This document shows positions 4,351 through 49,958 of a stretch of DNA of 63,885 nucleotides, in pieces. This DNA is from an uncultured virus (IMG/VR IMGVR_UViG_3300027704_000010) (Duplodnaviria > Heunggongvirae > Uroviricota > Caudoviricetes), in the IMG/VR virus record IMGVR_UViG_3300027704_000010; one strand, 5' to 3'. The notes beneath the pieces are model-generated. The model was not told the DNA's origin. It saw only the letters and a list, made by a program, of their open reading frames with translations, and searched no databases. The number at the start of each line of letters is the position of its first letter. The stretch's first letter is position 1. A program made the translations under genes and the position numbers.

Positions 4351-4649
4351 TAGTTTGCTAGCCTGTCTATTACTTCCTTAGAGGGTACGAATATTATTAA
4401 ACCTGACACAAAGTCTTCTATAGGGTCTACTAATGCATCTGGGTTTCTTAATGCAAACACCCACCATAGTTGGACCGTTCCATATAGTTCGTATGCTAGT
4501 AAGTCAGGGCGTTTTGCGTATTTAGGTTCTACTGAATACTTTCTATCTGCTCGACTTTTTGGAAGTTTAGGCAAATCGTTTACGTCAAGAAATAATCCTC
4601 TTGTGGAAGCTCTGCGTAAAAAACTGTCTTTGTTAACCGTGTTAGCCAT
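4350..4649 (-). CDS. baseplate wedge subunit, LysM-like (T4 gp53-like)
   Basis: RPDLLAYELYGTVQLWWVFALRNP motif. Confidence 0.8.
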   Translation of the reverse strand: MANTVNKDSFLRRASTRGLFLDVNDLPKLPKSRADRKYSVEPKYAKRPDLLAYELYGTVQLWWVFALRNPDALVDPIEDFVSGLIIFVPSKEVIDRLAN

Positions 4650-5412: not shown

Positions 5413-5430
5413 TATTTATCAAGATAAATA
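5413..5430. promoter_or_regulatory. back-to-back late promoter boxes (TATTTATC-AA-GATAAATA)
   Basis: Perfect inverted repeat of the GATAAATA motif that recurs before structural genes. Confidence 0.6.
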
Positions 5431-32528: not shown

Positions 32529-32646
32529 TAACTCGTAAACCAGTCCAAACTCCAACAAAACGATAAATATGTGCAATAGGGAAAACCTTATTGACTGACT
32601 ACGCGAGTCAGACTATATAACATATAGACAACATAGGAATAATAAA

Positions 32647-35600: not shown

Positions 35601-36048
35601 TGCATTAAACTTAGGATCAAGTGGACTTAAATATGCAAATGTTTACGCAACTACATTCCAAGGTAATGCAACTTCGGCGCAGTATGCGGATTTGGCTGAG
35701 AAATACGAAAGTGATGCAGAACTAGAAGCAGGCACAGTTGTTATGTTTGGTGGTGATAAAGAAGTTACAGCATGTGATAGTGAAAACTGTCATGCAGTAG
35801 CAGGTGTTATCAGTACTGATCCAGCTTATATGATGAACGCAGGAGCAGAAGGTCAATTTGTAGCATTAACAGGAAGAGTACCTACTAAGGTTACTGGTCC
35901 AGTTGCTAAAGGTGACTTAATGGTTTCCGCAGGTAACGGTATGGCTAAGGCTAATAACGATGCACAGGCAGGAAGAATGATTGGTAAAGCAGTTGGTTCT
36001 TCAGAAGGCGGAGAAGCTGTTATAGAAGTACTTGTTAACTTGATGTAA
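32647..36048 (+). CDS. virion fibre protein (Mtd-N/hyaluronidase-like N-terminus)
   Basis: IQWRRGTT..HSSFTGLAGEITVDTD N-terminus, same repeat family and YADLAEKY C-terminal module as the previous gene; GATAAATA at 32562. Confidence 0.8.
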   Translation: MATAIQWRRGTTTQHSSFTGLAGEITVDTDLNTVIVHDGSTAGGHRIAKYTEVTSAAAGDISSVVAGAGLTGGATTGDATINVIAGGGITVSADAVSLNASSGTFTTGVQTFLAGGTLAGHIIPSADVTYDLGSSSKQWRDVYVGPGSLYINGQQVLQDNSGTIQISADANQNVGIVTSGSGDVELNASGTGVINIQSAITVDAGQTLTGTGGLTMASNINLNSNSVNNLPAPGHAGDATNKTYVDGATYLTGGTGITNSSGTFAIDATVITTTGTQTISGNKTFSGTTTVSGTLNSSGAQLNIADNLITLNSDATGTPSEDVGLIVERGDSTNVQFKWIEAADEWSFTNDGSAYQGLVGHADFSAVTSGDGSLSYNSSTGAYTYTGPTAANVRAHLSAGTGMSFSGGAFATTITQYTDALAKASITVNDAGGDGSLAISNGVITYTGPSAAEAEAQINAHLSGGTGITYTDGAISVDATVVSTSGTQTVAGAKTFSDNMIISGNLTVNGTQTIVNTETLTIDDNMIVLNNNEAGTPSEDSGIEIERGTSTNVKLQWKEASDRWEMFDGSSTYPLARTTADLTESGNLYYTDARANARVAAATGANLDLSSKDTGDLSESGNLYYTDARADARIAAADTGDLSEGSNEYFTTARARASISEGSTELAYNSTTGVLTFTQGSTSGVSEGSNLYYTDARADARIANASTSNLSEGTNLYHTTERVQDIAGAMFTANTESGITVTYDDADGTIDLTTSIAGFSTSNLSEGSNLYHTTARARASINGGTGITYNASTGAISLTDTGYVTGVTAGTGLSGGGTSGTVTLNVSGITVAELDGGAVQISSESFADNNTTLMTSAAIQDKIEAYGYSTTTGDITGVTAGAGLTGGATSGSADLAIGAGTGITVNANDIAVTLTPFSTSNLSEGTNLYYTSARADARVSAVVTNAFVDALNVDADTLDDLTSSQFLRSDANDSHSGTITPSSNNALNLGSSGLKYANVYATTFQGNATSAQYADLAEKYESDAELEAGTVVMFGGDKEVTACDSENCHAVAGVISTDPAYMMNAGAEGQFVALTGRVPTKVTGPVAKGDLMVSAGNGMAKANNDAQAGRMIGKAVGSSEGGEAVIEVLVNLM

Positions 36049-36063
36049 GAGTTTACAAACAAT

Positions 36064-36094
36064 AAAAAAGGGAGTTTTTTAACTCCCTTTTTTT
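36064..36094. terminator. bidirectional terminator
   Basis: AAAAAAGGGAGTT-TTTT-AACTCCCTTTTTTT. Confidence 0.85.
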
Positions 36095-36341: not shown

Positions 36342-36423
36342 AATGTATTTATACAAACGAGTATTTTTACCAGGAAATATGTGATATTGCATAACAGTTG
36401 TTACATAGAAACTAAACCCAAAC

Positions 36424-36431
36424 GATAAATA
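36424..36431 (+). promoter_or_regulatory. late promoter box heading the curli operon
   Basis: GATAAATA; further boxes at 42085, 42629 and (GC)TAAATA at 47849. Confidence 0.55.
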
Positions 36432-36493
36432 GTAACGAGTAGACAGTAACACACACACTTAAAGTAGCAACCCTTAAAAGGTGTGTATATAAT

Positions 36494-36790
36494 ATGGAAG
36501 AAATATTTGGATTGATCGCTGAAGTAGGAGCCCCCATCGCCGGAAGTCTAGTAATGGGATTCTTTATCTTTATGGTAATAAAACAAATTCTCGAGGGTGT
36601 TGTAGACCAGGTCAAAACTTTGACTATGTTTTGCACATCACTAGAAGCGAGAGCAAGTACTATGAGTAACGAAATGTTAAAAATAGACTTGCTAGTTAGC
36701 AGTGCCTTAGACCTCAGACCTGACATAGATCGAGTTTCGAGAGCAGATAATTTTGTCGAAGATGGCAAAGTGGATGCTAGGAGAGACTAA
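36494..36790 (+). CDS. small membrane protein (single TM plus coiled coil)
   Basis: N-terminal TM GAPIAGSLVMGFFIFMVIK. Confidence 0.7.
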   Translation: MEEIFGLIAEVGAPIAGSLVMGFFIFMVIKQILEGVVDQVKTLTMFCTSLEARASTMSNEMLKIDLLVSSALDLRPDIDRVSRADNFVEDGKVDARRD

Positions 36791-37089
36791 TGGATATTGC
36801 ACAGGCGATTAATGACTTTGGATTTCCAATCGTGTTATGCGTTGGACTCGGTTACTTTATATATTATATATGGTGGTTTATTGGAGAAAAGATAGATCCC
36901 GCTCTTGGCGACATGCATATAGCACTAATCAGAGTAATAGATAAAATGCGTAGATTAGACCAAGATTTAATTAGGCTACAACAGAAAGTTGATGTTGTGT
37001 TAGAATACAGAGCTAGACAACAAGTGCTAGACAATGCAGAACAAGAAACTGCATTAAAAACATTAAAACAAAAGCAAACAGGAAAGTAA
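36790..37089 (+). CDS. small membrane protein, paralogue-like to previous
   Basis: GFPIVLCVGLGYFIYYIW TM then coiled coil; coupled start. Confidence 0.7.
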   Translation: MDIAQAINDFGFPIVLCVGLGYFIYYIWWFIGEKIDPALGDMHIALIRVIDKMRRLDQDLIRLQQKVDVVLEYRARQQVLDNAEQETALKTLKQKQTGK

Positions 37090-37090
37090 A

Positions 37091-37606
37091 ATGAAAATTA
37101 CAGGTACACACTTAGGTATGTTGGTTATGGTCGGATATTTTATAATGTCTTTGGCTAATAGTGACCTTTATGCCGATGAACTAAAGTTTAAGTTCAAGTC
37201 TCCGTCATTTTCTGGTAACGGGACAGGAGCACATTATTTAACAATTGAGAACCAGGAGAAGTCACGAAAAGATAAGATTAAAGAAGACATAGAATCTGCG
37301 TTAAAACGAGCAGAACGTGACAATGATAATTCGACAATTAATAAATTTATTAGAAATTTGGAGAGTAGAATTTATTCACAAATTTCTAAAGGATTAGTCG
37401 ACAGCATGTTTTGTGATCCAGCAGTAGTTATTGCATGTACAAATTCAGATTCAGGTAGTTTTGAAATTGAAGGAAATACTGTTACATACATTAAAACAGT
37501 TAATGAAGATGGGCTATCTATTATTAGAATGACTATTGTTGACCCTGACGGAACAATAACAACTATTGAGATTCCAATTGGAATCGGCAACATTGGCGGC
37601 GGTTAA
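37091..37606 (+). CDS. csgF: curli assembly protein CsgF
   Basis: Signal peptide followed by ELKFKFKSPSFSG (CsgF L.(Y/F).F.NPSFGG-type motif), FIRNLESRIYSQIS; directly before csgG. Confidence 0.82.
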   Translation: MKITGTHLGMLVMVGYFIMSLANSDLYADELKFKFKSPSFSGNGTGAHYLTIENQEKSRKDKIKEDIESALKRAERDNDNSTINKFIRNLESRIYSQISKGLVDSMFCDPAVVIACTNSDSGSFEIEGNTVTYIKTVNEDGLSIIRMTIVDPDGTITTIEIPIGIGNIGGG

Positions 37607-38616
37607 TGAAACTGTCTAATTACATACTGTTCTTTGTCGGCGCAATGTACTTAACTGGGTGTGCTAGTATATCTATACCCGGTGATACAGCATGTAATAC
37701 GGACTTTCTCGAATGCGTAGAAGAGCCGAAGCAAGTAGAATTACCCACATATCGAAAATTACGATATTTACCACCTAGCGAAACAATGCCAGTGGTAGCT
37801 GTTTATCAGTTTACTGACCAAACAGGACAAAGAAAAAGTCAAGATGGTGTCGCTAGTTTTAGTACAGCGGTCACACAGGATCCGAAGAGCATATTGATTG
37901 ACGCCTTGAAGGCGGCAGGTGCTCACGAAAACCCAAAAGGAACATGGTTCCGGGTAGTTGAACGGGGTCTTGGCTTAGATAACTTAGTGAGGGAAAGGCA
38001 GATAGTTCGTAGTACACGCGAACAATATCAGACTGAAGAAAAACCTCAACAAGCAGTACAGCCATTGTTATTTGCTGGTATGATACTCGAAGGAGGTGTT
38101 GTAGGTTATGACACTAATGTAGAGACTGGCGGTAATGGTGCAAGGTACTTAGGTATTGGTACTACAAACCAATATAGAAGAGATAGTGTTACTATATCAC
38201 TTAGAGCAGTAAGTACGCTCACCGGTGAAGTAATACTGAATGTACAGACATACAAAACTATCCTTAGTACAGGAATGGCAGGAGACGTATTCAAATTTTT
38301 AGACATGGATACACGATTGCTTGAATTGGAAAGTGGCATGACACAGAACGAGAGCGTAACTTATGCAGTCCGGTCGGCGATTGAAGCCGCAGTATTGGCA
38401 TTGATACAACAAGGTGATGAAAGAGGATATTGGAAAATTGTGTATCCGGAGAATTGGCAAGAAGAAGTAGATCAGCAAGAACGAGCTTACTGGATGAAAG
38501 TCAATAATCAAGAAATTTTGGATACAAATGTAGACGAGAAGCCTACGTCATCACAGAATACTTTTTGGAAAAAAATATTACTAAAAAGTGAACCCATTAA
38601 TGGAGAAGAAAAATGA
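37606..38616 (+). CDS. csgG: curli secretion channel lipoprotein CsgG
   Basis: Lipobox LTGC; VAVYQFTDQTGQRK, FSTAVTQ, WFRVVER..LDNLVRERQIVR, EGGVVGYDTN, GARYLGIG. Confidence 0.93.
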   Translation: MKLSNYILFFVGAMYLTGCASISIPGDTACNTDFLECVEEPKQVELPTYRKLRYLPPSETMPVVAVYQFTDQTGQRKSQDGVASFSTAVTQDPKSILIDALKAAGAHENPKGTWFRVVERGLGLDNLVRERQIVRSTREQYQTEEKPQQAVQPLLFAGMILEGGVVGYDTNVETGGNGARYLGIGTTNQYRRDSVTISLRAVSTLTGEVILNVQTYKTILSTGMAGDVFKFLDMDTRLLELESGMTQNESVTYAVRSAIEAAVLALIQQGDERGYWKIVYPENWQEEVDQQERAYWMKVNNQEILDTNVDEKPTSSQNTFWKKILLKSEPINGEEK

Positions 38617-39443
38617 AGACAAACGTAATAAAGAAATTTACACTACAAGTCTTCGCTATAGTAAGTGTAATAATAGGAAGTCAGGCTCTAGGTGCAACGG
38701 ATAACGAAGTACTACTAGACCAAGAAGGTGACAACTTAATATTAACAATATTACAAGCTGGTAACAGTAACAGAGTTTCTGGAGTGGCCTCAGGGTCAGG
38801 AGATTTAGTTGTAACTGGTAACAGTTTGATAATTGATATCATACAAGACGGTAACACAAATAAGTTTTTTGGAGACTTAATATTTGATGGATCCGGAAGT
38901 TCAGTAATGGACTTTTATCAATTAGGTGATAGTAACGTCTGGGATTTACAGATCGGTGCTAACTCTAATAGTGCAGATAATACAGACATGCTAGTAGACA
39001 TTCAGGGCGACGGCAACACATTTGATGTTGGCATAGCTCACAGTGCCGCGGCGGAAAGCACTAACTTTGATTTAGATATACTTGGTTCTAGGAACAATTT
39101 TACTGCAAGTTTCAACAATACTACAGCTTGGGCATCAGCATCAGGCAATAACGCTGTTGGCGGAATTAAAAGTACTGGAACTGGCACATCTGCTTTAGCA
39201 GGTATTACAATTGATACTAGTAACGTTGTATGGAATATGGAAATTATAGGAGACGACAACAAATTTGCTACTAAACAAAGTGGTAACGGTGGTCATTCCT
39301 TAACAGTAGTCTTAGACGGCAGTGATGGTGATTTTCAATTCATACAGGACATGACAGCAACATGTAGTCCAACGTGTGAAGGTATAATTAACATAAATCT
39401 AAATAGCGAAAATGCATCAGTTCTTATTAAACAGACTGATTAA
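38613..39443 (+). CDS. curlin-repeat protein (CsgA/CsgB-like)
   Basis: Signal peptide; repeated Q-x-G-x-x-N (QAGNSN, QDGNTN, QLGDSN, QGDGN). Confidence 0.7.
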   Translation: MKTNVIKKFTLQVFAIVSVIIGSQALGATDNEVLLDQEGDNLILTILQAGNSNRVSGVASGSGDLVVTGNSLIIDIIQDGNTNKFFGDLIFDGSGSSVMDFYQLGDSNVWDLQIGANSNSADNTDMLVDIQGDGNTFDVGIAHSAAAESTNFDLDILGSRNNFTASFNNTTAWASASGNNAVGGIKSTGTGTSALAGITIDTSNVVWNMEIIGDDNKFATKQSGNGGHSLTVVLDGSDGDFQFIQDMTATCSPTCEGIININLNSENASVLIKQTD

Positions 39444-40584
39444 CATAACAGCAGTATTAGTACTGTTGCTTACACCAAATCTGAGTGCCGCTGAGAGCAT
39501 CGGCGGCATTATTGAACAAAGTGGAGCAACTGGAAGTATTGTAAGGTTGTCAGGCGAAGAACTGGCGGCTAATATTTTAGCCAATATTGTAAGTTATGAT
39601 GAAGTAGAAACAACAAATGGGAGACTAAAAATTGAGTTTCTCGACAAAACCCAGGTTAGTCTAACAGAACACACTTACATGGAAATAGACGAATATGTAT
39701 TCGACCCAGATCCAAGTAAAAGCAAGATGGCATTAAATTTTGTACAAGGAACAGCTAGGTTTGCCACGGGCAGTTTAGGTCTCGTAGCAAAAGAAAATAT
39801 AACAATCCTGACCCCTACCGCAAGTATAGGGATTAGAGGAACCGATTTTACTACCACAGTCGATGAACTGGGTAGGAGTCTAGTGATATTATTACCGGAC
39901 GAAGACTGTACTAATACAGTAGCATTAGAAGAAGGGTGTGCTCCAAGTGGTAGCATAACGGTAACAAATCAAGGCGGCACAGTAATATTAGATGAAGCCT
40001 ACCAGGCAGTAATGGTAAGCACATTTGAAACAAGCCCTACACAGCCTGTTGTGTTGGTTGATTTAGATTTAAATATGATAGATAATATGTTTATTGTAGC
40101 AGAACCAAAACAGATTACAGAAGCAAAAGAAGAACAAGTACAAGAATTAAAAGGCGACAACGGATTATTAGACTTTGATGGCTTAGATGCAAATGCAATT
40201 GAGCAAGATGTTTTAGCAGATACAACAGAAGATTTAGACTACACGGAATTGGATATAGATTTATTAAATGTAGACTTCCTAGTAGACTTATTAGACATTG
40301 TAGAAAAAACTACTAGTGGATTAGATGAAAAAGGCGGAGACTCAGGCAGTGGCGATAATAAATTAATAGGTGCTGTATACGGAACCAATCCTGGAAATCA
40401 ATTTAATATTATTCCAGACTTAGATGGCAAAGTATTTTTTCTCAGGCAAGTAAGCAATAAAATTAGTATTAAATTACGAAAAGGTTCTGTCGCACAGCTA
40501 GATATAAAAGACGGAGATTTAGGAGACACTATTATATGTTTAAGTAGTTGTGAAAACATATTAATAAGTATAACACAAGAATGA
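39412..40584 (+). CDS. secreted FecR-domain protein
   Basis: Signal peptide; DEVETTNGRLKIEFLDKTQVSL, GTARF, TPTASIGIRGTDF. Confidence 0.8.
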   Translation: MHQFLLNRLINITAVLVLLLTPNLSAAESIGGIIEQSGATGSIVRLSGEELAANILANIVSYDEVETTNGRLKIEFLDKTQVSLTEHTYMEIDEYVFDPDPSKSKMALNFVQGTARFATGSLGLVAKENITILTPTASIGIRGTDFTTTVDELGRSLVILLPDEDCTNTVALEEGCAPSGSITVTNQGGTVILDEAYQAVMVSTFETSPTQPVVLVDLDLNMIDNMFIVAEPKQITEAKEEQVQELKGDNGLLDFDGLDANAIEQDVLADTTEDLDYTELDIDLLNVDFLVDLLDIVEKTTSGLDEKGGDSGSGDNKLIGAVYGTNPGNQFNIIPDLDGKVFFLRQVSNKISIKLRKGSVAQLDIKDGDLGDTIICLSSCENILISITQE

Positions 40585-41522
40585 ATATAGAAAAAAAATT
40601 AAATGACATGAAGCCAAAAGATACTCCTCTGTTAGTATTAGGATATATCTTATTGGGTATGATGCTATTATTACCAGCAACAGCAAAAGCAGACAATGAA
40701 GTGGTGCTAGATCAGGAAGGTGATAATGTGGTTGTAGATATAATGCAAGCCGGCGCTATTAATAAAATAGATATAGTACTAGGATTGAATAATAATACTA
40801 ACAATACACTTAAAATAGGCCAAGGACACTCCGAGGGCGCCGAAAGTAACAACGTGTTTTTTAGTGTTGATGGCACCCACAACACTATGCAAATAGAACA
40901 GCATGGCAGTAATAACGAAGTTGGCTGGACTAATGCCTGGGGCACTGGTATTGGGTTTGGCGGCGACTTAGACGGAAATAGTAATCAGATATACTTCCAT
41001 CAAAATTGTACTCGTGGCGCAAGTTGTGGCAAATCAGATATAGGATTTCATATCAAAGGAAATTCTAATACAGTTCGATATGGTCAAGGAGTTTGGTTTG
41101 GTTCTGGCGGCAGTATATCGAGTACCACATTTTACGATGATGGCGACGAGGGCGGAAACCATACAGCAACGTTAGACATTCACGGTAACAATAATACTCT
41201 TGTTGGAATGCAAAGAAACGGTAGTCTTGATACTTATGATGGTCATACTGCAAATTTATACTTGTATGCAGATGACAACACACTTTATGTCAATCAACAA
41301 ACAGATGGAGCAAAGACATTAAATTATTCCTCTTACGTTGATGGTACCGTTGGTAGTATAACTCAACAAAGTAATGGTGCTCACACAGCCACAATAGTGT
41401 TGAACGGAACACAACCTAGTAATTTGACGCTATTACAAAGCTCGAATTCAGCAAAGTCATACTCACTTACTCAGACGTGCCACACAGTTGGCGGCTGTTC
41501 TATTTCAGTTACTCAAGATTAA
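40581..41522 (+). CDS. second curlin-repeat protein
   Basis: Signal peptide; mature N-terminus DNEVVLDQEGDN nearly identical to the first curlin; QAGAIN, QHGSNN repeats. Confidence 0.68.
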   Translation: MNIEKKLNDMKPKDTPLLVLGYILLGMMLLLPATAKADNEVVLDQEGDNVVVDIMQAGAINKIDIVLGLNNNTNNTLKIGQGHSEGAESNNVFFSVDGTHNTMQIEQHGSNNEVGWTNAWGTGIGFGGDLDGNSNQIYFHQNCTRGASCGKSDIGFHIKGNSNTVRYGQGVWFGSGGSISSTTFYDDGDEGGNHTATLDIHGNNNTLVGMQRNGSLDTYDGHTANLYLYADDNTLYVNQQTDGAKTLNYSSYVDGTVGSITQQSNGAHTATIVLNGTQPSNLTLLQSSNSAKSYSLTQTCHTVGGCSISVTQD

Positions 41523-41525
41523 TAC

Positions 41526-41554
41526 TTGACAAGTCGTTAAATAATTGCTATAAT
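41526..41554 (+). promoter_or_regulatory. sigma70 early promoter
   Basis: TTGACA-17 nt-TATAAT. Confidence 0.8.
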
Positions 41555-41561
41555 TAACGCT

Positions 41562-41762
41562 ATGAGACACATGATCAAGTGGTTGAAGATATCAGCTGGT
41601 ATAAACATATACCTTAGCTTCATACTAACATTAGTATTAGTAGCACTTATGGTGGATATCGGTTTAGATAGTTATTGGCATGGCGCAGACTTCAAAAACA
41701 GTATTATAGAAGAACTGCACAAAGCACAGAATAATCAACTAGATGAAAACCACACAGGCTAA
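41562..41762 (+). CDS. small membrane protein
   Basis: One TM helix; directly after the promoter (near-leaderless). Confidence 0.6.
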   Translation: MRHMIKWLKISAGINIYLSFILTLVLVALMVDIGLDSYWHGADFKNSIIEELHKAQNNQLDENHTG

Positions 41763-42081
41763 ACTCGCCACTGCGATTTCTAAATATAAGAAATCTACAC
41801 AGTTATTACTCACGATTGTAGCAATTCCACATTTAGTTATAATCTCTTTGATGTTCCCTATGCTAACAGTAACCATTATGGCAACATTTATGCTGACTGG
41901 ATTAATGTATGCTTGGTGTGAACTGATATACCAAATAGAAAATTCCCAAAGAAGTCAATTAATGTTCCTCATACAAACAACCACAAACGAACACACTAGA
42001 CAAATACTGCGTATGGAACTTTGGGAAATTGAAAAACACAACGGACTTTCAGGCACGTTTGACCCATACCACATCATTTAA
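41743..42081 (+). CDS. membrane protein (2 TM)
   Basis: Hydrophobic 45-aa stretch; overlaps previous ORF. Confidence 0.6.
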   Translation: MKTTQAKLATAISKYKKSTQLLLTIVAIPHLVIISLMFPMLTVTIMATFMLTGLMYAWCELIYQIENSQRSQLMFLIQTTTNEHTRQILRMELWEIEKHNGLSGTFDPYHII

Positions 42082-42143
42082 TTAGATAAATACTATATGT
42101 AATAATAGCAGATGGCTTTATTACCTTATATAAGGAGACGGAT

Positions 42144-42422
42144 ATGAATAATTTAGTATCTTTTTTCGGTTTAATTCTTTTATCAAGCATCGTAGGATGT
42201 GCCTCAGTTAGTGGCGCCTGGAATGCTGGTACAGAGATTGTCACAGGAACAGTTGACTCTGTTGTGGGCGGAGCCGCCACAATGGCAGTAGCGATTACTG
42301 ATGATGTTCGAAACATTGCAGACGTAACTATTGACACAGCACAAGGTGTTGTTAAAACAGTTGCAGAAAATGTTGATAAACAAACTGATGAATTACAAAA
42401 AGACAAAGAGCCGGGAAAGTAG
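42144..42422 (+). CDS. lipoprotein with a -1 frameshift extension to 42547
   Basis: AAGGAG RBS; lipobox IVGC; ends CCG GGA AAG TAG (GGGAAAG heptamer). Confidence 0.75.
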   Translation: MNNLVSFFGLILLSSIVGCASVSGAWNAGTEIVTGTVDSVVGGAATMAVAITDDVRNIADVTIDTAQGVVKTVAENVDKQTDELQKDKEPGK

Positions 42423-42592
42423 GTAACTTTTCTCTTTTCAGAAAAGAAAAGGAAAAGCAACTCACAGCACAGGAATTAGTCTTACTTTTCAAACAGAACC
42501 AAGAGAAGTTAGAAAAATACTGTACAACTAACCCAAAGGAATGTTAGCAATAATCGATAGATAGACGATTAGATGCGATAAATGTTAGCACT

Positions 42593-42617
42593 AAAGCACT
42601 CGCAAGAGTGCTTTTTT
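42593..42617 (+). terminator. Rho-independent terminator
   Basis: AAAGCACTC-GCAA-GAGTGCTTTTTT. Confidence 0.85.
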
Positions 42618-42725
42618 GTTTTTTAAACGATAAATACTTGTACATAATAACACAGGGTTTACTTATTACACAACACACCCACACATAACTGTCCCACTAA
42701 AACACAGTACCCTAAAGGAGAAAAA

Positions 42726-44177
42726 ATGAAGATAAGAATCTTATCAGCATTAGCCTTGATTGGGTTAATGACGACAACTGGTACAGTACAGGCCCAGGCC
42801 ACCGGCACATGTACAGCAGGTACCCAGTATTGTGAAGCAAGTACATCGGATACTACAAGTACAACCACAACTACTGCGAATAATACGAATACTTCGACGA
42901 ACACGAATACTTCGACGAACACGAATACCAACGCGAATACGAACACGAATACCAACGCGAACACAAACACGAATACTTCGACGAATACGAATAATTCGAC
43001 GAATACGAATAATTCGACAAATACAAACACCAACGCGAATACGAACACGAACACCAACGCGAATACGAACACCAACACGAACACCAACGCGAATACGAAC
43101 ACGAACACGAATACCAATACCAACAATAATACCAACAATAATACCAACGCGAATACGAACACGAATAATTCGACCAATACTAACAATTCGACCAACAGCA
43201 ACACCAATAATAATACGTCGACAAATAATAACACCAACGCGAACACGAACACGAATAATAATACATCGACTAGTACCAACAACAATGTGTCGAGTGGTGG
43301 AACAAATAACACCAATGCTAATACGAATAATAATACCAACACCAACAATAGCACTTCGAACAATACCAACACCAATAATAACACTAGTGATAGCACGGTA
43401 AACAGTACTTCGAATAACACTAATACGAACAATAGTAATATTGATCAGAACGTGAATTCAAATAGTACTAGTAACAATACCAACACCAATAATAACAATA
43501 ACAACTCGACCAGTGATAATACTAATAACAATAATAATACATCGACTAGTGACAGTAATGTAACAACTGACAACACGTCAGAAAGTAACAATACCAACAC
43601 CAATAATAATACTAATAAAAACGAAAACATCAACAAGACTGACCAGACTATTAAGCAAGAGATAACAACTAAGGCTCCACCTGCTAGTGCTATTGCACCA
43701 AGCATTGGTTCTAGTTACTCACAAGACTTATGTACAACTGGTATATCAGGTGCTTTCCAAGGACAAGTATTTGGACTAAGTGGCGGTAAATCAGTTAGAG
43801 ATATGAACTGTGAACGTATAAAGTTAAGTAAAACTATATACGATATGGGCATGAAGGTTGCGGCAGTTAGTTTAATGTGTCAAGACGAACGTGTATTTAC
43901 AGCGATGGAAATGGCTGGAACACCTTGTCCTTACATGGGAGCAATTGGCGATGCGGCTACTAAGCAATGGGCAGAGAATAGCGATGAACGAGCAGATGCT
44001 AAACGTGGATGGTTCGGCAGAAAGAAAAACACAAGGTCATCGGCTAAAGTAGACTCGAATGTACTTAACACAGGCGAAGACTTTGATAAGTTCATGAAAA
44101 AATGTCGTAAGAAAACAGGCAAAGGCAAGAAGAAAAGTTCGGGCCAATGTGAGGCAGAATGGGAATCAAACGCTTAA
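42726..44177 (+). CDS. secreted Asn/Thr low-complexity protein with Cys-containing C-terminal domain
   Basis: Signal peptide (VQAQA), ~250 aa of NT/NS repeats, then APPASAIAP..DLC..DMNCERIK..MCQD..TPCP. Confidence 0.8.
   Translation: MKIRILSALALIGLMTTTGTVQAQATGTCTAGTQYCEASTSDTTSTTTTTANNTNTSTNTNTSTNTNTNANTNTNTNANTNTNTSTNTNNSTNTNNSTNTNTNANTNTNTNANTNTNTNTNANTNTNTNTNTNNNTNNNTNANTNTNNSTNTNNSTNSNTNNNTSTNNNTNANTNTNNNTSTSTNNNVSSGGTNNTNANTNNNTNTNNSTSNNTNTNNNTSDSTVNSTSNNTNTNNSNIDQNVNSNSTSNNTNTNNNNNNSTSDNTNNNNNTSTSDSNVTTDNTSESNNTNTNNNTNKNENINKTDQTIKQEITTKAPPASAIAPSIGSSYSQDLCTTGISGAFQGQVFGLSGGKSVRDMNCERIKLSKTIYDMGMKVAAVSLMCQDERVFTAMEMAGTPCPYMGAIGDAATKQWAENSDERADAKRGWFGRKKNTRSSAKVDSNVLNTGEDFDKFMKKCRKKTGKGKKKSSGQCEAEWESNA
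42878..43620 (+). repeat. degenerate (AAT/AAC-ACG/ACC)n coding repeat
   Basis: Recurrent AATACGAAC, ACCAACGCG and TCGACG units. Confidence 0.85.
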
Positions 44178-47100
44178 TAACAGCACTTGCTGTAGGCGTA
44201 CTAACTTTATTTCCTACAGTATCTGAAGCCGACGGAGGATACACGACTGATAATACTGGCTATCCTTTAGTAAATCTTGTTGGCGACTATTATCAGGGTG
44301 GCAACAGCAACGGTTCAATACTATGTCAAGGCGCCGCAGATGAAACAGGTTGTAATATAGCATTTGCTATTGGCTTTGATTTTGACTGGCATGGCGAAAC
44401 ATTCACTCACGGCTTAATGAGTACTAATGGTTGTTTAAAACTGTTGAAGTCAAGTGCGTTTAGCAGTAGTGATTACTGTAGTTATGATGTAAAGCATCTA
44501 AGTGCCTCTTCAGGAATGAACGATACACTATTCCCTTTCTGGAGTGACTTAGACTTAGGCACAATATACGATACCCAAGCACCGGTTAATAGCACAATGC
44601 TCTTTAATAACTCGGGCAACTTTGCTACATTTGGCTGGTACTATATGCGTGAGTATGGCGTAACAGCAGATACGGATAAATTTGATCCAATGTATCCAAA
44701 CGCACATAATACGTTTGAGGTGGTGCTTTTAAATCAAAACTGTACAGATTGCCCAGGCAACACAGATGACGAAAACGATGACTATGCTTACATATACGGT
44801 AACTTAGAAATTAGTCACAGTAATGTTTTAATTGGAGAAAAGAAAAACTCGAACTCCTTTACTGAAGCATACTTTTTTAGTGATAATAGTTGGTGTGCAG
44901 ATTGTATAAACCCAAATGACGGCACTCAAGGACGACACCTTTTTATATGGGACGACTATGACCAAGGAAACGTAGAAGGCGGAGCAATATACAAAGACGG
45001 TAATGGCGTACAGCCTGCAGAGTGTGAGAATAATCCTCTTTTTAGCACATCATGTAGTTTATATAGTATAAGTTTCTTAGCACAACAATGCCTCTCCGAT
45101 AGTTCATATAGTCCAGACTGTGACGGATACTTTGGTGACTTAGAAGACACATATTTAGAAGAAAATGCATGTTACGAAGATCCGAGCTTACCACAATGTG
45201 CCGGATTAGGTATTTTTGAAACTTTCAGTGATTATGATTATGCTACAGGAGAAGCGTATGACTTTAATTATAACCCACAAGAATTTGGCAACATGGACGG
45301 CTATGATCCTAACACAGGATTAGTTACGCAAAGTGATGGTTCGACAATTAGTATAGATGGCTCTTATTATTCCGATGGATATGATCCTAATGTGGATTAT
45401 GATAGCATGAATAATACGTCCGGCGATAACTTTTATTTGAATGAAGATGGCATATATGTTCCTGACCAATACGACCCAATGCAAGATGACGATATAAAGT
45501 TTGAATATTTAAGTGAAGAACAACAGATGTTAGTTGGTCAAGGTTTAAGTATGCAGGAAGCCACACTAATTACAATGGGCCAAGGTGACCTACTAGCATT
45601 AGGACATGATCCTAACATACAATTTCAAGGTAACAACCCAGGCGACTTAGTTTATGAAATTATAGGACAAGACGATTACAACTATGAAATGCATGACGAG
45701 TTTATGTTGAATGAAGCAGAAGAAAACGGCTGGGTAGATGGATATACAAGCAGTGATATATGGAGTACAGAAGAATACCAGCAACAAGAAGATATGTGGG
45801 AAGCAGAGTTTGAAGCAGAGTTTGGACCAGACGCATACAGCTGGACATCAAAAGATTGGTATGAATACGATCTAAAAGAATTTGGACAAGATCAAGTAGA
45901 TGAGTGGTACGGCAAAGAAGTAGTATTTGACGAGAGTGGAGAGATGGATTGGGAATCATTTGACATGCTAATGGATGAAGAATACGCTTATGAAGTGTAT
46001 GAAGTTTATTCAGACGAAGAAGAACTGATGTACGAAGAAATGATAGCAAAGGATTTTGAAAAATGTCCTACATGTGAGCTTGAAGAATTTTTTGACTTAT
46101 CGGAAGATGAACTAATAGCATTTGAAAACGAAAGAATGTATGAGGAAGAGGCATACTTTGACCTTGATCCAGAAGAGGCATTCGAAGCCTTTATCAAAGA
46201 AGAAGGATTGGAGGACATATTAAGTGCAGACGAATTAGACGACTTTAGAAATGAAGTGTATGCTGACATAGAACTGCATGAAGAACAGCATGAAGAACAA
46301 TTTCAAGAAGGCCCAGGCGATTATCAAGTAGCAGAATCTACTACACCCAAGGCACAAGAACAACGACAAGAACAACGACAAGAACAACAAAAAACAGACA
46401 CCCAGTTTCTTAGTAATGCTGGTTCAGGTGTAATGAGTGTTAGTGTAGCACAATTTAATTTAGACTTTAACAGTAGCGACGGTGGTAGTACACAGGAAGT
46501 TGTTGAAGAACTTATTGCTGATATTATTGATGACGGCTCAGGTAGTATTGATGACGGCTCAGGTAGTTTCGACGATGGATCAGGCAGTAGCAATAGCAGT
46601 GGTAATGACGGCAGTGGTAGTTATGCTCAAAGCAATGACGGTTCAAGCCAGTCACAAAATTCAAATGGTAGCCAGGACAGCGGACAAGGAATGTTAGCAC
46701 AAGAAGATACAAGTGGTGATAGTTTCTTCCAAGAACAAATAGAGCAAAGCATGGGACAAGAAAGTTTCAGTGCTACAACAAGTGTAACAGAATCATTTGA
46801 TACTGGTGCATTTACAGTTGCTGAAAGTTCAGCTGATGCCCAAACAGTACAACAAGAAGAAACACTACAGTTTGTAGAAAACTTCGATGACGGTACAAGT
46901 GGCATAAGTGGAGCAGACATACAGTTTGAAGATGAACTAACCACAGCATTAAGTAGTGGCACAGGCTTAACAGAATTCCTAAGCCAAGCACCGGCAGATT
47001 ACAGTAGGTTTGAAGTTGAAGCACCTACGTTCCAAGAGCAACGACAATCAGACGCAGTAGAAAGTTTAGCAGATACAATGGGAGCAACAGTTGCCGCCGC

Positions 47101-47383
47101 AAACTTACAAGCAGAATTAGACACAATACAAGCAGGTAATGAGGACTCCAATGAATATGGCGACCAAACTATTGCTGTTGCTTATATTGGTTATACAGCA
47201 GGCTTTAGTGAGTACACTAGCCAAATACAATTAGCAGACCAACAAGCATGGTATGGTAGTTCGCAAGTGTACAAAGGACAAAAGAATGTTGATAACGTAC
47301 AGAGTTTTTACATGATGGCTGGAAATACTCAAGAGAAACTAAAAGAAATGATATACAGCCAATATAAATTAAAAGAAAAATAG
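44159..47383 (+). CDS. large secreted acidic protein (nidogen/NIDO-like N-terminus, Cys motifs)
   Basis: Signal peptide; IGFDFDWHGETF..MSTNG and LFPFWSDL; C..(N/D)P....C motifs; Asp/Glu-rich middle. Confidence 0.65.
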   Translation: MGIKRLITALAVGVLTLFPTVSEADGGYTTDNTGYPLVNLVGDYYQGGNSNGSILCQGAADETGCNIAFAIGFDFDWHGETFTHGLMSTNGCLKLLKSSAFSSSDYCSYDVKHLSASSGMNDTLFPFWSDLDLGTIYDTQAPVNSTMLFNNSGNFATFGWYYMREYGVTADTDKFDPMYPNAHNTFEVVLLNQNCTDCPGNTDDENDDYAYIYGNLEISHSNVLIGEKKNSNSFTEAYFFSDNSWCADCINPNDGTQGRHLFIWDDYDQGNVEGGAIYKDGNGVQPAECENNPLFSTSCSLYSISFLAQQCLSDSSYSPDCDGYFGDLEDTYLEENACYEDPSLPQCAGLGIFETFSDYDYATGEAYDFNYNPQEFGNMDGYDPNTGLVTQSDGSTISIDGSYYSDGYDPNVDYDSMNNTSGDNFYLNEDGIYVPDQYDPMQDDDIKFEYLSEEQQMLVGQGLSMQEATLITMGQGDLLALGHDPNIQFQGNNPGDLVYEIIGQDDYNYEMHDEFMLNEAEENGWVDGYTSSDIWSTEEYQQQEDMWEAEFEAEFGPDAYSWTSKDWYEYDLKEFGQDQVDEWYGKEVVFDESGEMDWESFDMLMDEEYAYEVYEVYSDEEELMYEEMIAKDFEKCPTCELEEFFDLSEDELIAFENERMYEEEAYFDLDPEEAFEAFIKEEGLEDILSADELDDFRNEVYADIELHEEQHEEQFQEGPGDYQVAESTTPKAQEQRQEQRQEQQKTDTQFLSNAGSGVMSVSVAQFNLDFNSSDGGSTQEVVEELIADIIDDGSGSIDDGSGSFDDGSGSSNSSGNDGSGSYAQSNDGSSQSQNSNGSQDSGQGMLAQEDTSGDSFFQEQIEQSMGQESFSATTSVTESFDTGAFTVAESSADAQTVQQEETLQFVENFDDGTSGISGADIQFEDELTTALSSGTGLTEFLSQAPADYSRFEVEAPTFQEQRQSDAVESLADTMGATVAAANLQAELDTIQAGNEDSNEYGDQTIAVAYIGYTAGFSEYTSQIQLADQQAWYGSSQVYKGQKNVDNVQSFYMMAGNTQEKLKEMIYSQYKLKEK

Positions 47384-47393
47384 GAGAAATAAA

Positions 47394-47846
47394 ATGGCAG
47401 AAGTAGAATATGCAGGTGTAAAAATGAGTGGTTCAAAACTTATGATTATGCTTCCTTTACTTGGTACTATAATCGGTGGACTATGGGGAGGCTTTGAACT
47501 CTACAGTAGACTACTTGAAGCAGAAGAAACATTAGCAAACTTACAACCAGAAGCAATTCAGACTGAACTAGTAAGACTAACTGAACTTACTGAAGTTATT
47601 AAAACGGATTTGAGAGCAGATATTAATTCAGCTAGAGACGAAGTTAAAGTAGCAATGGACTTATCAAGGGAAACTGAAAAAACATCAGCTGACACACAAA
47701 GAGAAATTAGAAATGATGTGTATGCTATGGAACGTGATATGAATACACGTTTTAAAGAGATGGATGCAGAAACTAGAGAGTTAAGAAAAGAGCTGGAAGA
47801 CAAGATAATGACTATACTTGAAAATCCACTCAACGACACTGAATAA
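47394..47846 (+). CDS. membrane-anchored coiled-coil protein
   Basis: TM LPLLGTIIGGLWGGF then heptads; AGGAG RBS. Confidence 0.7.
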   Translation: MAEVEYAGVKMSGSKLMIMLPLLGTIIGGLWGGFELYSRLLEAEETLANLQPEAIQTELVRLTELTEVIKTDLRADINSARDEVKVAMDLSRETEKTSADTQREIRNDVYAMERDMNTRFKEMDAETRELRKELEDKIMTILENPLNDTE

Positions 47847-47861
47847 CAGCTAAATACTGTT

Positions 47862-49958
47862 ATGAAATTTTTATATAGTGGTTATGCAGTATTGATATCT
47901 ATTGTGTTGCTACTTGCATTGCGAGTAGCAGATCCAACGGCACTACAGAGTGTTAGAGGGCAAACATTTGATGCATATCAACAGTTAGATGAAATTAAGC
48001 AAAGCCAGGATGTTGTACTATTAAACATCGGGGAAAAAAGTTTAGCAGTTAATGGTCAATACCCTTGGCCCAGACAATACTATGCACAACTGGTGATAGA
48101 TGTTGCAGGAGCCGGAGGCGGTGTGCTAGGCTGGACTATTATGTTTCCTGAAGCAGATAGATTCGCCGGAGATGAAATATTTGCTAATTACTTGATGGAA
48201 AATAAAGTTAATGTGCAAGGAGCAAGACGTAATCCTATTAACTTTAATGTATTAAGTCAAGCAACTAGTACAAGAGGCATTAAAACATCAGGCCCACATA
48301 TAGGAACAGGCACAATCGGTCCTGTGCCAGCAAAAAATTATTTACTAAAGTGGCCCAACTTAGTTACAAACATTCCGCTACTAGAAGCAGTAGCAAACGG
48401 CAAAGGCGTAACAGCGTCAGCGCCACAGCCAGATAATCAAACACGAACATACCCATTAGCAATTACAGTTGGCGATAGACTGTATCCTAGTTTTGCTATT
48501 GAAATGCTAAGGGTAAGTAAAGGTCAAAAAAGTTATATAGTTAAAACTAGCGAATTAGGAATACAAGAAGTTACAGTTAAAGGATACGATCCAATTGTAA
48601 CACAGTCAGACGGCACAGCATACATTCGCTTTAATAATACATTCGAGGAAATTGAATACTTAGGAGCCGAAACTCTGACCCATCTTGCAGGCAAAATGGT
48701 TATAGTAGGTGTTACAGCAGAAGGTATTGCAAATCCTGTGCCTACACCAAGAGGCAACTTGTATCCACAGCAAATACACGCTCATATGCTACAAAACTTT
48801 ATAGATAGCAGTAACATTACCAGGAACGAGTTAAGTGCTGTGTACGAGCTTCTGTGTGCGTTACTGGGCATGATATTAATAGGTCTAGCAATATATAAAT
48901 CGCACATTTGGGTAGGTTTAGTGACCACAGTTACTATTATAGGCGGAATTGTATATTATAGTATATATTCTTATACTGCAAACTTAGTATTATTTGATGC
49001 TACTTTTCCAGCAATAGCAAGTTTCTTAATATTTACACAGGCAAGTTTTAATAACTTCTGGATACAATTTAAACTAAGAGCTGAGATACAAAAACAATTT
49101 GCCGGTTACGCCTCTCCTACAGTGGTTCGTATGTTGCAAGAAAACCCAGAACTAATTAAGCAGGGTATGAAGAAGGAAGTAAGTATATGCTTCTCAGATT
49201 TACGTGGATTTACCCCATTAGGCGAGAGCTTTGGCGATGATGTTAAAGGGTTAACAGAAATAATGAACGGGTATATGGATGCAATTACACAACCTATACT
49301 AGATGCAAACGGCATGGTGATTAAATATATCGGTGATGCCAGTATGCATATACATAATGCTCCAATGGATGATCCAGACCACCCTAAGAGTGCGGTGGAA
49401 ACAGGCATATTAATGCTCAGGGCAGTAGAGAAATTCAATGATAAAATTGTTAAAGAAGGCAGACCACCCATTGGTATGGGTGCTGGTATTAATACTGGGC
49501 TCGGTTATATTGGGGAAATGGGCTCCACTGCCAGGCACAGTTACGACATACTCGGAGATGCAGTTAGTACCGCGGCAAGAATAGAAAGCAAATGTAAAGA
49601 GTACGGATGTTTACTCCTTGTGGGCGGTGATACATATAAACATACTAAGAATAATTTCTTTTATTTAAAAGTAGATGACTTGCAAGTAAAAGGTAAAAGC
49701 GTTGGCATAGAAATATATACTGCATTAGATATTAAGCTAACTAAGTATGTTAAAGGCAAACAACTACATGCACAAATGCATGAACATTATCGCAATCAAG
49801 ATTTTGATAAAGCAATTAAATTATGTAAGCAATTATCTAAAACGTTTGACGGCAAAATGAAAGGCTACTATACTATGTGGATTGAACGCTGTGAATTTCA
49901 AAAGACACAAGACTTGCCTAAGGATTGGAACGGAATTATGATAGCCACAGGCAAATAA
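47862..49958 (+). CDS. CHASE2-domain class III adenylate cyclase
   Basis: GQYPWPR and D..FA CHASE2 motifs, three TM helices, FSDLRGFT, IKYIGDA, GINTG, YDILGDAVSTAARIES. Confidence 0.9.
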   Translation: MKFLYSGYAVLISIVLLLALRVADPTALQSVRGQTFDAYQQLDEIKQSQDVVLLNIGEKSLAVNGQYPWPRQYYAQLVIDVAGAGGGVLGWTIMFPEADRFAGDEIFANYLMENKVNVQGARRNPINFNVLSQATSTRGIKTSGPHIGTGTIGPVPAKNYLLKWPNLVTNIPLLEAVANGKGVTASAPQPDNQTRTYPLAITVGDRLYPSFAIEMLRVSKGQKSYIVKTSELGIQEVTVKGYDPIVTQSDGTAYIRFNNTFEEIEYLGAETLTHLAGKMVIVGVTAEGIANPVPTPRGNLYPQQIHAHMLQNFIDSSNITRNELSAVYELLCALLGMILIGLAIYKSHIWVGLVTTVTIIGGIVYYSIYSYTANLVLFDATFPAIASFLIFTQASFNNFWIQFKLRAEIQKQFAGYASPTVVRMLQENPELIKQGMKKEVSICFSDLRGFTPLGESFGDDVKGLTEIMNGYMDAITQPILDANGMVIKYIGDASMHIHNAPMDDPDHPKSAVETGILMLRAVEKFNDKIVKEGRPPIGMGAGINTGLGYIGEMGSTARHSYDILGDAVSTAARIESKCKEYGCLLLVGGDTYKHTKNNFFYLKVDDLQVKGKSVGIEIYTALDIKLTKYVKGKQLHAQMHEHYRNQDFDKAIKLCKQLSKTFDGKMKGYYTMWIERCEFQKTQDLPKDWNGIMIATGK

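Follow-up and report, generated by a model that had tools for sequence, protein, structure and literature searches.

A further copy of the viral curli-type secretion cassette, with a FecR-fold protein and a CHASE2 cyclase, in a probable jumbo phage

Why would a phage carry a curli-type secretion channel next to what looks like a sensor-controlled nucleotide cyclase? The question is raised by positions 36494-49958 (+ strand) of a 63,885-nucleotide stretch of DNA from an uncultured tailed virus of the class Caudoviricetes (IMG/VR record IMGVR_UViG_3300027704_000010), here called the window. The window comes from a T4-like myovirus: it encodes a late sigma factor of the gp55 type and gp46/47-like nuclease subunits as well as portal, major head, baseplate, and tail-sheath proteins, and the block under study sits between the fibre genes and a convergent tail module. 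A first-pass annotation, made from the sequence letters, had named csgF, csgG, two curlin-repeat proteins, a FecR-domain protein, and a CHASE2 cyclase; all of them were recovered on the + strand where it had placed them. The block is one more copy of a published viral cassette that comprises a type VIII secretion system (T8SS), FecR, and adenylate cyclase (PMC9599517), interrupted by passenger genes. With a probability of roughly 0.6, we read it as encoding a late-made curli-type channel, two solenoid substrates, and a periplasmic FecR/CHASE2 sensor that would make cyclic AMP (cAMP). Articles are cited by PMC number.

In the profile search that the first-pass annotation had proposed, CsgF, CsgG, FecR, CHASE2, and Guanylate_cyc all exceeded their curated Pfam cut-offs. 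The scores were 43.9 bits for CsgF (cut-off 25.8), 164.2 for CsgG (20.8), 38.8 for FecR (24), and, within one and the same protein, 115.2 for CHASE2 (26.3) and 56.9 for Guanylate_cyc (21.9). From the first gene of the block through curlin 2 (36494..41522), the reading frames overlap or abut.

The linkage of these genes was surveyed with CsgG relatives found in 108 viral stretches, of which 80 loci were kept; loci are labeled L with a number, and L004-L006 belong to the same phage population as the window. For 58 viral loci the sequence extends 5 kb or more beyond the downstream end of csgG; all 58 have FecR, and 56 have the cyclase. In L004 and L028, where no cyclase was seen, the large insert of the window is present and the sequence stops before the cyclase position. 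On the other side, CsgF was found in all 75 loci with at least 1.5 kb upstream of csgG. The FecR and cyclase genes thus co-occur with csgFG in related phages, as the first-pass annotation had supposed.

For comparison with bacteria, species genomes were scanned with a FecR profile, giving a FecR-centered sample based on two peptide patterns. The 79 FecR loci obtained are nearly all alphaproteobacterial. Four of them hold the whole phage module with csgFG; three of these four are flanked by phage genes (terminase, spanins, integrase), and the fourth, L087, is 6.8 kb long, is filled by the module, and is 75-92% identical to viral locus L075/L079. The other 75 bacterial FecR loci have neither csgG nor csgF nor a curlin gene within 10 kb. 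On these counts, a bacterial origin of the whole linked module was rejected. A CHASE2 gene lies within 10 kb in 14 of the 75 (10 cyclases, three SpoIIE phosphatases from Pelagibacter, and one HD domain protein), in agreement with the earlier remark that FecR genes sit beside CHASE2 genes in bacteria. In bacteria, FecR and CHASE2 thus pair independently of curli, and the three different output domains seen with them agree with a sensor pair that is self-contained. The pairing is also in line with what has been published on S. meliloti and Burkholderia (see below).

Several loci of this survey deserve separate mention. In SAR11 genomes, from a Pelagibacter isolate and single cells (L090 3205-12463, L103, and L110), FecR-domain proteins stand beside a CHASE2-SpoIIE phosphatase, so a possible host class already has a FecR/CHASE2 sensor with a different output. 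On a podovirus-like contig binned with a Pelagibacter metagenome-assembled genome (MAG), Rz-like spanin genes were found about 3 kb upstream of the T8SS module (L085 3363-4195). In L086 the module lies beside an integrase, which hints at a temperate carrier.

The channel proteins were compared with their E. coli counterparts. The window CsgG matched E. coli CsgG chains at E 5e-45 and has a lipobox, LTGC, at residue 16. We examined the loop that aligns with the E. coli constriction. At the Phe position, 43 of 60 phage sequences have Phe, 16 have Leu, and one has Tyr, and the neighboring positions vary; in the alignment of the window CsgG to E. coli CsgG, the Phe is kept and the Asn and Tyr are not. 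CsgF gave a weak match to CsgF in the PDB (E 0.28). At least 80% of 55 phage CsgF sequences retain the motif FKxPSFSG, which directly follows a signal-peptide-like N-terminus.

As the first-pass annotation had noticed, the accessory curli genes are missing. Neither CsgE nor CsgC turned up in Pfam searches of the module and of three related phage records, among them one that is 91% complete, and the general Pfam scan gave no CsgD match in the module, no separate CsgD search having been made. According to the passages of PMC9599517 on alphaproteobacterial operons, CsgE, CsgC, and CsgD are likewise missing there. The proposal that small membrane proteins substitute for these three found no support for the accessory proteins of 66, 112, and 92 aa. 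Their homologues occur in 13, 12, and 23 of 82 loci, respectively, and because they are so sparsely distributed and have their own promoters, they are poor candidates for substitutes.

The most conserved unexplained part of the cassette is the pair of small membrane proteins at its start (36494-37089). Each was found in 74 of the 75 loci with at least 1.5 kb upstream, and in seven loci the genes are placed elsewhere within the locus. A "histidine kinase" is named in podo- and myovirus T8SS regions in the text of PMC9599517. Among 52 members of the small-protein family, none matched a HisKA/DHp or HATPase-type Pfam family at E ≤1. A search of 1.8 billion proteins yielded 1012 representative relatives at E ≤0.001; the best 150 of these 1012 are 68-209 aa long, and all stand alone, none being part of a long protein. 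Judged from these profiles, the "histidine kinase" label should be dropped for the small membrane proteins.

The two curlin-repeat proteins were assessed with family alignments of 28 curlin-2 and 46 curlin-1 homologues from related viral loci. The invariant columns are nearly all Q, G, or N and are spaced by about 25 residues. In PDB searches, the curlin-2 family profile gave E 1.3e-9 for 8c50, a curlin-repeat protein from Pontibacter, and E 0.027 for E. coli CsgA (8enq); the curlin-1 profile gave E 2e-4 for 8c50. Compared with each other in hhalign (probability 99.8, E 1e-30), the curlin-1 and curlin-2 families are paralogous. An AlphaFold2 model of curlin 2, with a predicted local distance difference test score (pLDDT) of 76.7 and a predicted template modeling score of 0.75, consists of a stack of 22 short strands. 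In an exhaustive VIA structural search with this model, the curli CsgA structure 8c50_A ranked first (Z 22.2, 223 aligned residues, root mean square deviation (rmsd) 8.7), and the next-best matches were unrelated beta-helices at Z ≤16.3. As modeled, curlin 2 is a beta-solenoid with solved curli CsgA as its closest match, and this is the fold on which the first-pass annotation had staked its proposal.

A related observation was made in HTVC008M-type loci, named after a cultured phage that carries the cassette. Between FecR and the cyclase they have a protein of about 118 aa that ends in a Cys pair and a curlin-like terminal strand (L048 12610-12969, L052 4109-4468, L060 5507-5866, L075 7709-8065, and L076/L077 12574-12930). 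By these features it may be a minimal curlin-like protein.

The model of the FecR-fold protein (pLDDT 73.5) shows a FecR domain, a disordered acidic linker, and a small C-terminal beta domain. Residues 60-227 superimposed on the C-terminal signaling domain of PupR, 6ovm_R, with Z 15.2 and rmsd 3.0 over 137 aligned residues. Further matches were to 4m0h_A (Z 13.8), to a Bacteroidales anti-sigma factor, and, in Foldseek, to PupR 6ovk_R (E 1e-4). Ahead of the FecR domain there is a signal-peptide-like N-terminus alone, with no anti-sigma domain or membrane anchor, and no extracytoplasmic function (ECF) sigma factor or TonB-dependent transducer is encoded beside the FecR gene in the block.

The C-terminus of the FecR-fold protein resembles those of the curlins. 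The pattern hydrophobic-x-hydrophobic-x-Q closes 46 of 48 phage FecR proteins, 21 of 28 curlin-2 proteins, and 29 of 46 curlin-1 proteins, versus 20 of 1322 other open reading frames (ORFs), at least 13 of those 20 being unrecognized module proteins. It was absent from all 75 bacterial FecR ORFs and present in all four phage-type FecR proteins from MAG contigs, and the acidic linker and C-terminal domain had no match in the bacterial relatives sampled. With hhalign, the FecR C-terminus was aligned onto the curlin-2 C-terminus at a probability of 3.5 and E 0.012, which is not significant; with curlin 1, the C-terminal domain gave an unrelated local match (probability 14.5). Within the full-length model this domain forms a small sandwich with VIA matches at Z about 3 only and no solenoid. 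The curlin-like ending of phage FecR, a resemblance of motif, is therefore reported as a lead and not as a finding. That the protein is a hybrid, tethered by a curlin-type strand to the curlins or to CsgG/CsgF so that fibre export, growth, or contact would be turned into cAMP through CHASE2, we consider quite unlikely.

In the cyclase, hydrophobic segments at residues 1-17 and 323-389 flank the CHASE2 domain and are followed by the output domain. The cyclase was aligned with CyaB 3r5g and others. D446, K488, D492, and R573 are invariant in 45 of 45 phage cyclases, and D562 and S569 occur in 22 of the 45. The active site of a class III adenylate cyclase comprises two metal-binding Asp residues, a Lys/Asp pair for the substrate, and transition-state Arg and Asn residues; the window cyclase has all of these except the Asn. 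A Lys/Asp substrate pair is the canonical adenine-specifying pair, and cAMP is the product we infer for the window cyclase from its sequence.

Two covarying active-site types were observed among the phage CHASE2 cyclases, at a site that corresponds to window positions 49524-49568 (residues 555-569). The Asp562 plus Ser569 type comprises the window, the cultured phage Melnitz, and 20 others (22/45), and the Ser/Thr plus Asn type comprises the remaining 23 of 45, from HTVC008M-type and podovirus-type phages. Bacterial CHASE2 cyclases had Ser/Asn in all eight that were parsed, out of 10. The features of the block and its surroundings are collected in Table 1.

Table 1. Genes of the block and predicted regulatory features of the window
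Feature	Position	Strand	Remarks
gp55-type late sigma gene	5522-6394		
Palindromic terminator-like hairpin	36064..36093		13-pair stem, then T run; 3' of upstream tail-fibre gene
GATAAATA late-promoter-type box	36424..36431	+	63 nt 5' of first block gene
Small membrane protein 1, 98 aa	36494..36790	+	N-terminal hydrophobic segment, helical tail; phrog_18771, 3e-23
Small membrane protein 2, 99 aa	36790..37089	+	Paralogue of protein 1; phrog_18771, 8e-21
CsgF	37091..37606	+	Pfam CsgF, 3e-11
CsgG lipoprotein, outer-membrane channel	37606..38616	+	Pfam, 3e-48
Curlin-repeat protein 1, 276 aa	38613..39443	+	Curlin_rpt 17.7 bits, family profile
Exported FecR-fold protein, 390 aa	39412..40584	+	Pfam FecR, 1e-9
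Curlin-repeat protein 2, 313 aa	40581..41522	+	Family profile, model
Sigma-70-type promoter	41526..41554	+	TTGACA, 17 nt, TATAAT; extended -10 TG; 12/12 matches; upstream of 66-aa gene
Accessory small membrane protein, 66 aa	41562..41762	+	
Accessory membrane protein, 112 aa	41743..42081	+	Two hydrophobic segments
GATAAATA box	42085..42092	+	Upstream of 92-aa gene
Accessory small lipoprotein, 92 aa	42144..42422	+	Lipobox IVGC at residue 16
Terminator-like hairpin	42593..42614	+	Followed by T run
GATAAATA box	42629..42636	+	Upstream of inserted cassette and cyclase
Passenger cassette gene 1, 483 aa	42726..44177	+	Asn/Thr-rich; phrog_20531, 2e-16
Passenger cassette gene 2, 1074 aa	44159..47383	+	Acidic; N-terminal hydrophobic segment
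Passenger cassette gene 3, 150 aa	47394..47846	+	Membrane-anchored coiled-coil
CHASE2 class III nucleotide cyclase, 698 aa	47862..49958	+	CHASE2, 5e-33; Guanylate_cyc, 3e-15

The first-pass annotation had stated that the block is preceded by the same boxes as the structural genes, and the enrichment and placement of GATAAATA bear this out. The window has 14 copies of GATAAATA compared with 3.9 expected, a number reached in none of 100 shuffles, and copies were found upstream of portal, fibre, baseplate, and virion genes as well as of the block. By comparison, TATAAATA was not enriched in the window (nine copies versus 7.7 expected). The block is read as a unit of its own because the hairpin at 36064..36093 would terminate transcription after the tail-fibre gene. 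Four transcription units are predicted. The late box at 36424 would serve the seven-gene T8SS-FecR operon; the sigma-70 promoter, the 66-aa and 112-aa genes; the late box at 42085, the 92-aa lipoprotein gene up to the terminator; and the late box at 42629, the 483-aa, 1074-aa, and 150-aa genes together with the cyclase. Of 52 distinct related loci, 43, with HTVC008M and Melnitz among them, have a NATAAATA box in the 160 nt that precede the first gene of the module, against a background of 0.048 per 160 nt. Late expression of the cassette is, as far as such promoter-type boxes indicate it, conserved across loci.

Three further observations concern promoters and fibre genes of the window. A perfect sigma-70 promoter is placed inside the late region, before the small membrane-protein genes at 41562-42081, and this consensus suggests early expression of the 66-aa and 112-aa genes by the host polymerase. 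At 5413-5430, between a virion-protein gene (4649-5395, minus strand) and the late sigma gene, two GATAAATA boxes stand back to back and face outward, so that the late sigma gene itself has a late-type box. The region 27264-36048 encodes two very large fibre proteins of 1754 and 1133 aa with common C-terminal tail-fibre families, and Mtd_N and BppL_N domains were recognized at the N-terminus and in the interior of the second, of 1133 aa.

Contigs from RNA libraries (four libraries from three studies) cover the block in part: they fall on portions of the region from the small proteins to CsgF, of the curlin 1, FecR, and accessory genes, and of the insert, and on the beginning of the cyclase gene. 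Those in X15-X17 are at least 99% identical to the window, and the X18 contigs are more divergent and look like a related strain. No RNA-library contig lay over csgG (37461-38434) or most of the cyclase, and contigs of this kind cannot show absence, starts, or strand. They are compatible with transcription of the block and are not proof of it. The highest depth in the block, 22, was seen for the 92-aa lipoprotein in a related-strain contig that differs from the window by 11 letters and two gaps over 442 bases.

Between curlin 2 and the cyclase the window has an insert of 6.3 kb, which brings the csgG-to-cyclase distance to 10.26 kb, compared with 2.5-8.3 kb in other loci. Across loci this slot is hypervariable in content and length. 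The 92-aa lipoprotein in this slot has a late box and a terminator of its own; small late lipoproteins block receptors in other phages, and it may act in this way. The 483-aa and 1074-aa secreted proteins, which had been counted as parts of the module, proved to belong to a separate cassette. The 483-aa family was found in 80 viral loci, and a T8SS gene is nearby in only one of them, the window's own contig. A 1074-like gene lies directly downstream of the 483-like gene in 67 of the 80 loci, and a homologue of the 150-aa coiled-coil protein follows the pair in nine of 79 other loci. Because they are widespread without T8SS genes, the 483-, 1074-, and 150-aa genes are read as a passenger cassette and not as curli components.

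The 483-aa protein has an N-terminal hydrophobic segment and a Cys-containing C-terminal domain that is near-invariant among its closest relatives. The Cys domain was also found in the Pelagibacter phages HTVC115P, HTVC202P, Mosig, HTVC023P, Baldr, and HTVC033P, in Roseobacter phage CRP-207, and in Ralstonia phage RSP15. The 1074-aa protein had no Pfam match, and its N-terminus, without match in cultured phages, is NIDO-like as a lead only (Atlas score 0.93). Copies of the cassette, annotated as hypothetical throughout, are found in loci L164-L242, in HTVC023P (gp45-gp46, L243 5770-7845), and in Mosig (genes 202-201, L244 1250-3915). To characterize its surroundings, 71 of 142 flanking ORFs from 16 loci were scanned against PHROGs. 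Endolysin or holin families lie within about 3 kb of the cassette in five of the 16 loci, tail-fibre or fibre-assembly genes lie directly upstream in four of the 16, and HTVC023P has a peptidase M15 three genes downstream. Given this company, the three-gene cassette may have to do with the envelope or with lysis.

Judged from its relatives, the phage that carries the block is probably a jumbo phage. Megablast of the block against 50,697 phage records gave no match, and relatives were found at the protein level only. The nearest cultured relative of the portal is that of the Pseudomonas jumbo phage PA5oct (52% identity over 93%). The nearest record, G001, is the same phage (6.6 kb aligned at 100% identity); at a length of 81.5 kb it is rated 23% complete, and a related carrier record of 339.8 kb is rated 91% complete. 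Positions 36400-42700 (6.3 kb) are near-identical (96-98%) in 14 marine DNA runs from 10 studies, and eight of these runs may be the source of the window.

Much of the arrangement had been described before. In 2020, csgF and csgG were reported in pelagimyophages together with a "sibling capture" proposal (PMC7029224), and in 2022 a lysis-timing pore was proposed for Melnitz (PMC9004378). A further article of 2022, in mSystems (PMC9599517), describes T8SS regions of podo- and myoviruses that contain CsgA/B-type fibre genes, FecR, and adenylate cyclase. The same article covers alphaproteobacterial affinities, ocean-wide distribution, and transcripts of the viral T8SS, reports the cassette at all 65 stations surveyed, and already raises aggregation, superinfection, and import as hypotheses. 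The first-pass annotation had presented fibre subunits plus a sensor-cyclase as new for a phage; they were published in 2022 (PMC9599517) and are annotated in Melnitz. In a full-text literature search, CsgG, phage, adenylate cyclase, and FecR occurred together in PMC9599517 alone; neither "jumbo" nor "CHASE2" appears in the main text of that article, and a search for "jumbo phage" with CsgG listed one review. Relative to the main text of PMC9599517, the additions made here are the jumbo carrier, the lack of support for the histidine-kinase label, the CHASE2 sensor, the replacement of Asn by Ser, the FecR ending, and the independent cassette.

The window agrees with HTVC008M and Melnitz in the order of two small membrane proteins, CsgF, CsgG, curlin, FecR, curlin, and cyclase, with CsgC, CsgD, and CsgE absent from all three. 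The record of Melnitz (MZ577097) annotates CsgF, CsgG, a curlin repeat protein, a FecR domain protein, a curlin repeat protein, and an adenylate/guanylate cyclase in this same order, and that of HTVC008M (KC465899), with the same arrangement as the window, is annotated for these genes in part in GenBank. The window CsgG is 48.5% identical to that of HTVC008M and 43.7% to that of Melnitz, and its cyclase is 51% identical to the Melnitz cyclase. Unlike HTVC008M-type carriers, the window phage has a portal nearest to PA5oct, the 6.3-kb insert, and a cyclase with its own late box behind a terminator.

Among cellular systems, the enterobacterial CsgBAC-CsgDEFG system shares with the phage cassette the CsgG lipoprotein channel, CsgF, and beta-solenoid subunits with Q/G/N repeats. 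The phage subunits differ from enterobacterial curli in being much longer, with about 10 rungs or more and a C-terminal Cys pair, and CsgE, CsgC, and CsgD are lacking. FecA-FecR-FecI and PupB-PupR have in common with the phage protein the periplasmic FecR-fold domain; unlike FecR and PupR, the phage protein is exported whole and comes without an anti-sigma domain, ECF sigma factor, or TonB-dependent transducer. A Burkholderia operon that encodes LysM-FecR and a CHASE2 histidine kinase has, like the phage, an exported FecR-domain protein beside a CHASE2 receptor; as described in the text of PMC5192318, it differs in its histidine kinase output with a response regulator, in its LysM domain, and in having no secretion genes.

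The cyclase itself resembles CyaD1, CyaD2, and CyaK of Sinorhizobium meliloti, which combine CHASE2 with a class III cyclase as in the phage (PMC13001267, PMC5498481). There, according to the relevant passages, the signal passes by way of NsrA, a beta-barrel in the outer membrane, upstream of the CHASE2 cyclases (PMC13001267), removal of CHASE2 from CyaD1 leads to constitutive cAMP, and Clr, which regulates in response to cAMP, has the FecR-domain gene SMc02177 among its targets (PMC5498481). The S. meliloti system is cellular and has no curli genes; it has Clr, whereas a Clr/CRP-type reader was not found in five related phage records. The window cyclase has Asp/Ser, in contrast to Ser/Asn in the eight parsed bacterial cyclases.

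The gene identities, the folds, the conserved order, the strict co-occurrence, and the late-type boxes described above are the basis on which a working model was drawn up. Late in infection, the gp55-type sigma factor would transcribe the operon 36494-41522 from the GATAAATA box at 36424. The CsgG lipoprotein and CsgF would build a curli-type channel in the host outer membrane, and the Sec-exported curlins 1 and 2 would traverse it and fold on the cell surface as beta-solenoids, possibly forming fibres. The exported FecR-fold protein and the CHASE2 domain of the cyclase would make contact as a two-part periplasmic sensor and direct the formation of cytoplasmic cAMP, by which the host might be affected. 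The cyclase would be transcribed from the second late box, at 42629, along with an unrelated three-gene cassette that landed in the variable slot.

Several results weigh against this model. The assignment of two curlin-repeat proteins stood at the level of family profiles for both, but not at the Pfam level, where curlin 1 remained under the Curlin_rpt cut-off of 20.7 bits and curlin 2 was without any match. Foldseek with the curlin-2 model returned nothing from the PDB at E ≤0.001, giving weak beta-helix rows only. Both curlins have a C-terminal Cys pair that, if oxidized in the periplasm, might hinder passage through a narrow channel. The window cyclase has Ser569 where the transition-state Asn is expected, and because of this replacement its activity may be low or altered. 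A search of five related phage records, including one that is 91% complete, gave no domain binding cyclic nucleotide monophosphates (cNMPs), the search not having extended to GAF or other types of reader domain; with no such phage protein found, the readout would have to be the host's. In this phage, the predicted terminator at 42593-42614 parts the cyclase from the T8SS operon, and for the RNA-library contigs DNA carry-over is possible.

Four other explanations were weighed. The FecR protein could dock by its curlin-like strand on the curlins or CsgG/CsgF and report export, fibre growth, or contact to the cyclase, much as FecA signals to FecR. The FecR gene is invariably placed between the curlin genes, overlapping each of them, the C-terminal motif is common to FecR and the curlins and absent from bacterial FecR proteins, the FecR-fold domain of PupR is periplasmic and binds an outer-membrane transducer, and NsrA upstream of CHASE2 cyclases, as described in PMC13001267, provides a precedent. 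We still regard such secretion-coupled signaling across the envelope as unlikely in view of the non-significant alignment between the FecR and curlin-2 C-termini, the sandwich modeled in place of a solenoid, and the position of the cyclase outside the T8SS transcription unit in this phage. Decidedly less likely is the use of CsgG/CsgF as a gated outer-membrane pore that times lysis or permeabilizes the cell, as put forward for Melnitz in PMC9004378. Late-type promoters on the module would suit such a pore, as would the spanin genes upstream of it in L085 and the endolysin, holin, and peptidase M15 genes near other copies of the passenger cassette. A bare pore would have no need of curlin genes with signal-peptide-like N-termini or of a CsgF constriction motif, yet both are conserved across lineages. 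The premise that fibre genes are missing from Melnitz is contradicted by the annotation of its own record and by the text of PMC9599517; moreover, an outer-membrane pore does not depolarize the inner membrane, and no lysis gene was found inside the block with Pfam or PHROGs.

Import of larger nutrients or cofactors through an ungated CsgG, with FecR as a hint of iron, has been suggested in passages of PMC7029224 and PMC9599517. It draws on the lack of a recognizable CsgE gate and on the name of FecR, and we consider it very improbable: the FecR-fold protein comes without an anti-sigma part, ECF sigma factor, or TonB-dependent transducer, its bacterial relatives pair with CHASE2 receptors and not with iron transporters, and CsgF and the curlins would be superfluous. 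The least credible alternative is a Pycsar-type defence or counter-defence in which the cyclase signal controls abortive infection or blocks competitors. PADLOC models for PycC did match the catalytic domain (best E 4e-16, 57 bits), but this score equals that of the general Pfam cyclase model and so reflects the shared fold. The Lys/Asp substrate pair specifies adenine by the canonical rule, no cNMP-binding effector was found in the five related records, and the enzyme, with its periplasmic CHASE2 sensor, has a fixed place in a secretion operon. The Pycsar reading was rejected on the shared fold and the lack of an effector in these records.

The curli-type channel with its solenoid substrates and FecR/CHASE2 sensor, the reading we prefer, belongs to a cassette that is common in ocean phages and provides the infected cell with a channel for secretion, with fibre proteins for its surface, and with a second-messenger sensor. 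The copy in the window adds no new principle and extends the known carriers by a probable jumbo phage. Cultured carriers exist, Melnitz on OM43 strain H5P1 and HTVC008M on SAR11 strain HTCC1062. Within the cassette, FecR is to be read as the sensor partner of CHASE2 and not as an iron regulator, and its curlin-like ending is a concrete point at which secretion could be coupled to cAMP. If the hybrid FecR proved true, the phage would be building a signaling chain from the outer membrane to the cytoplasm that reports the state of the surface to the cell or to the late programme.

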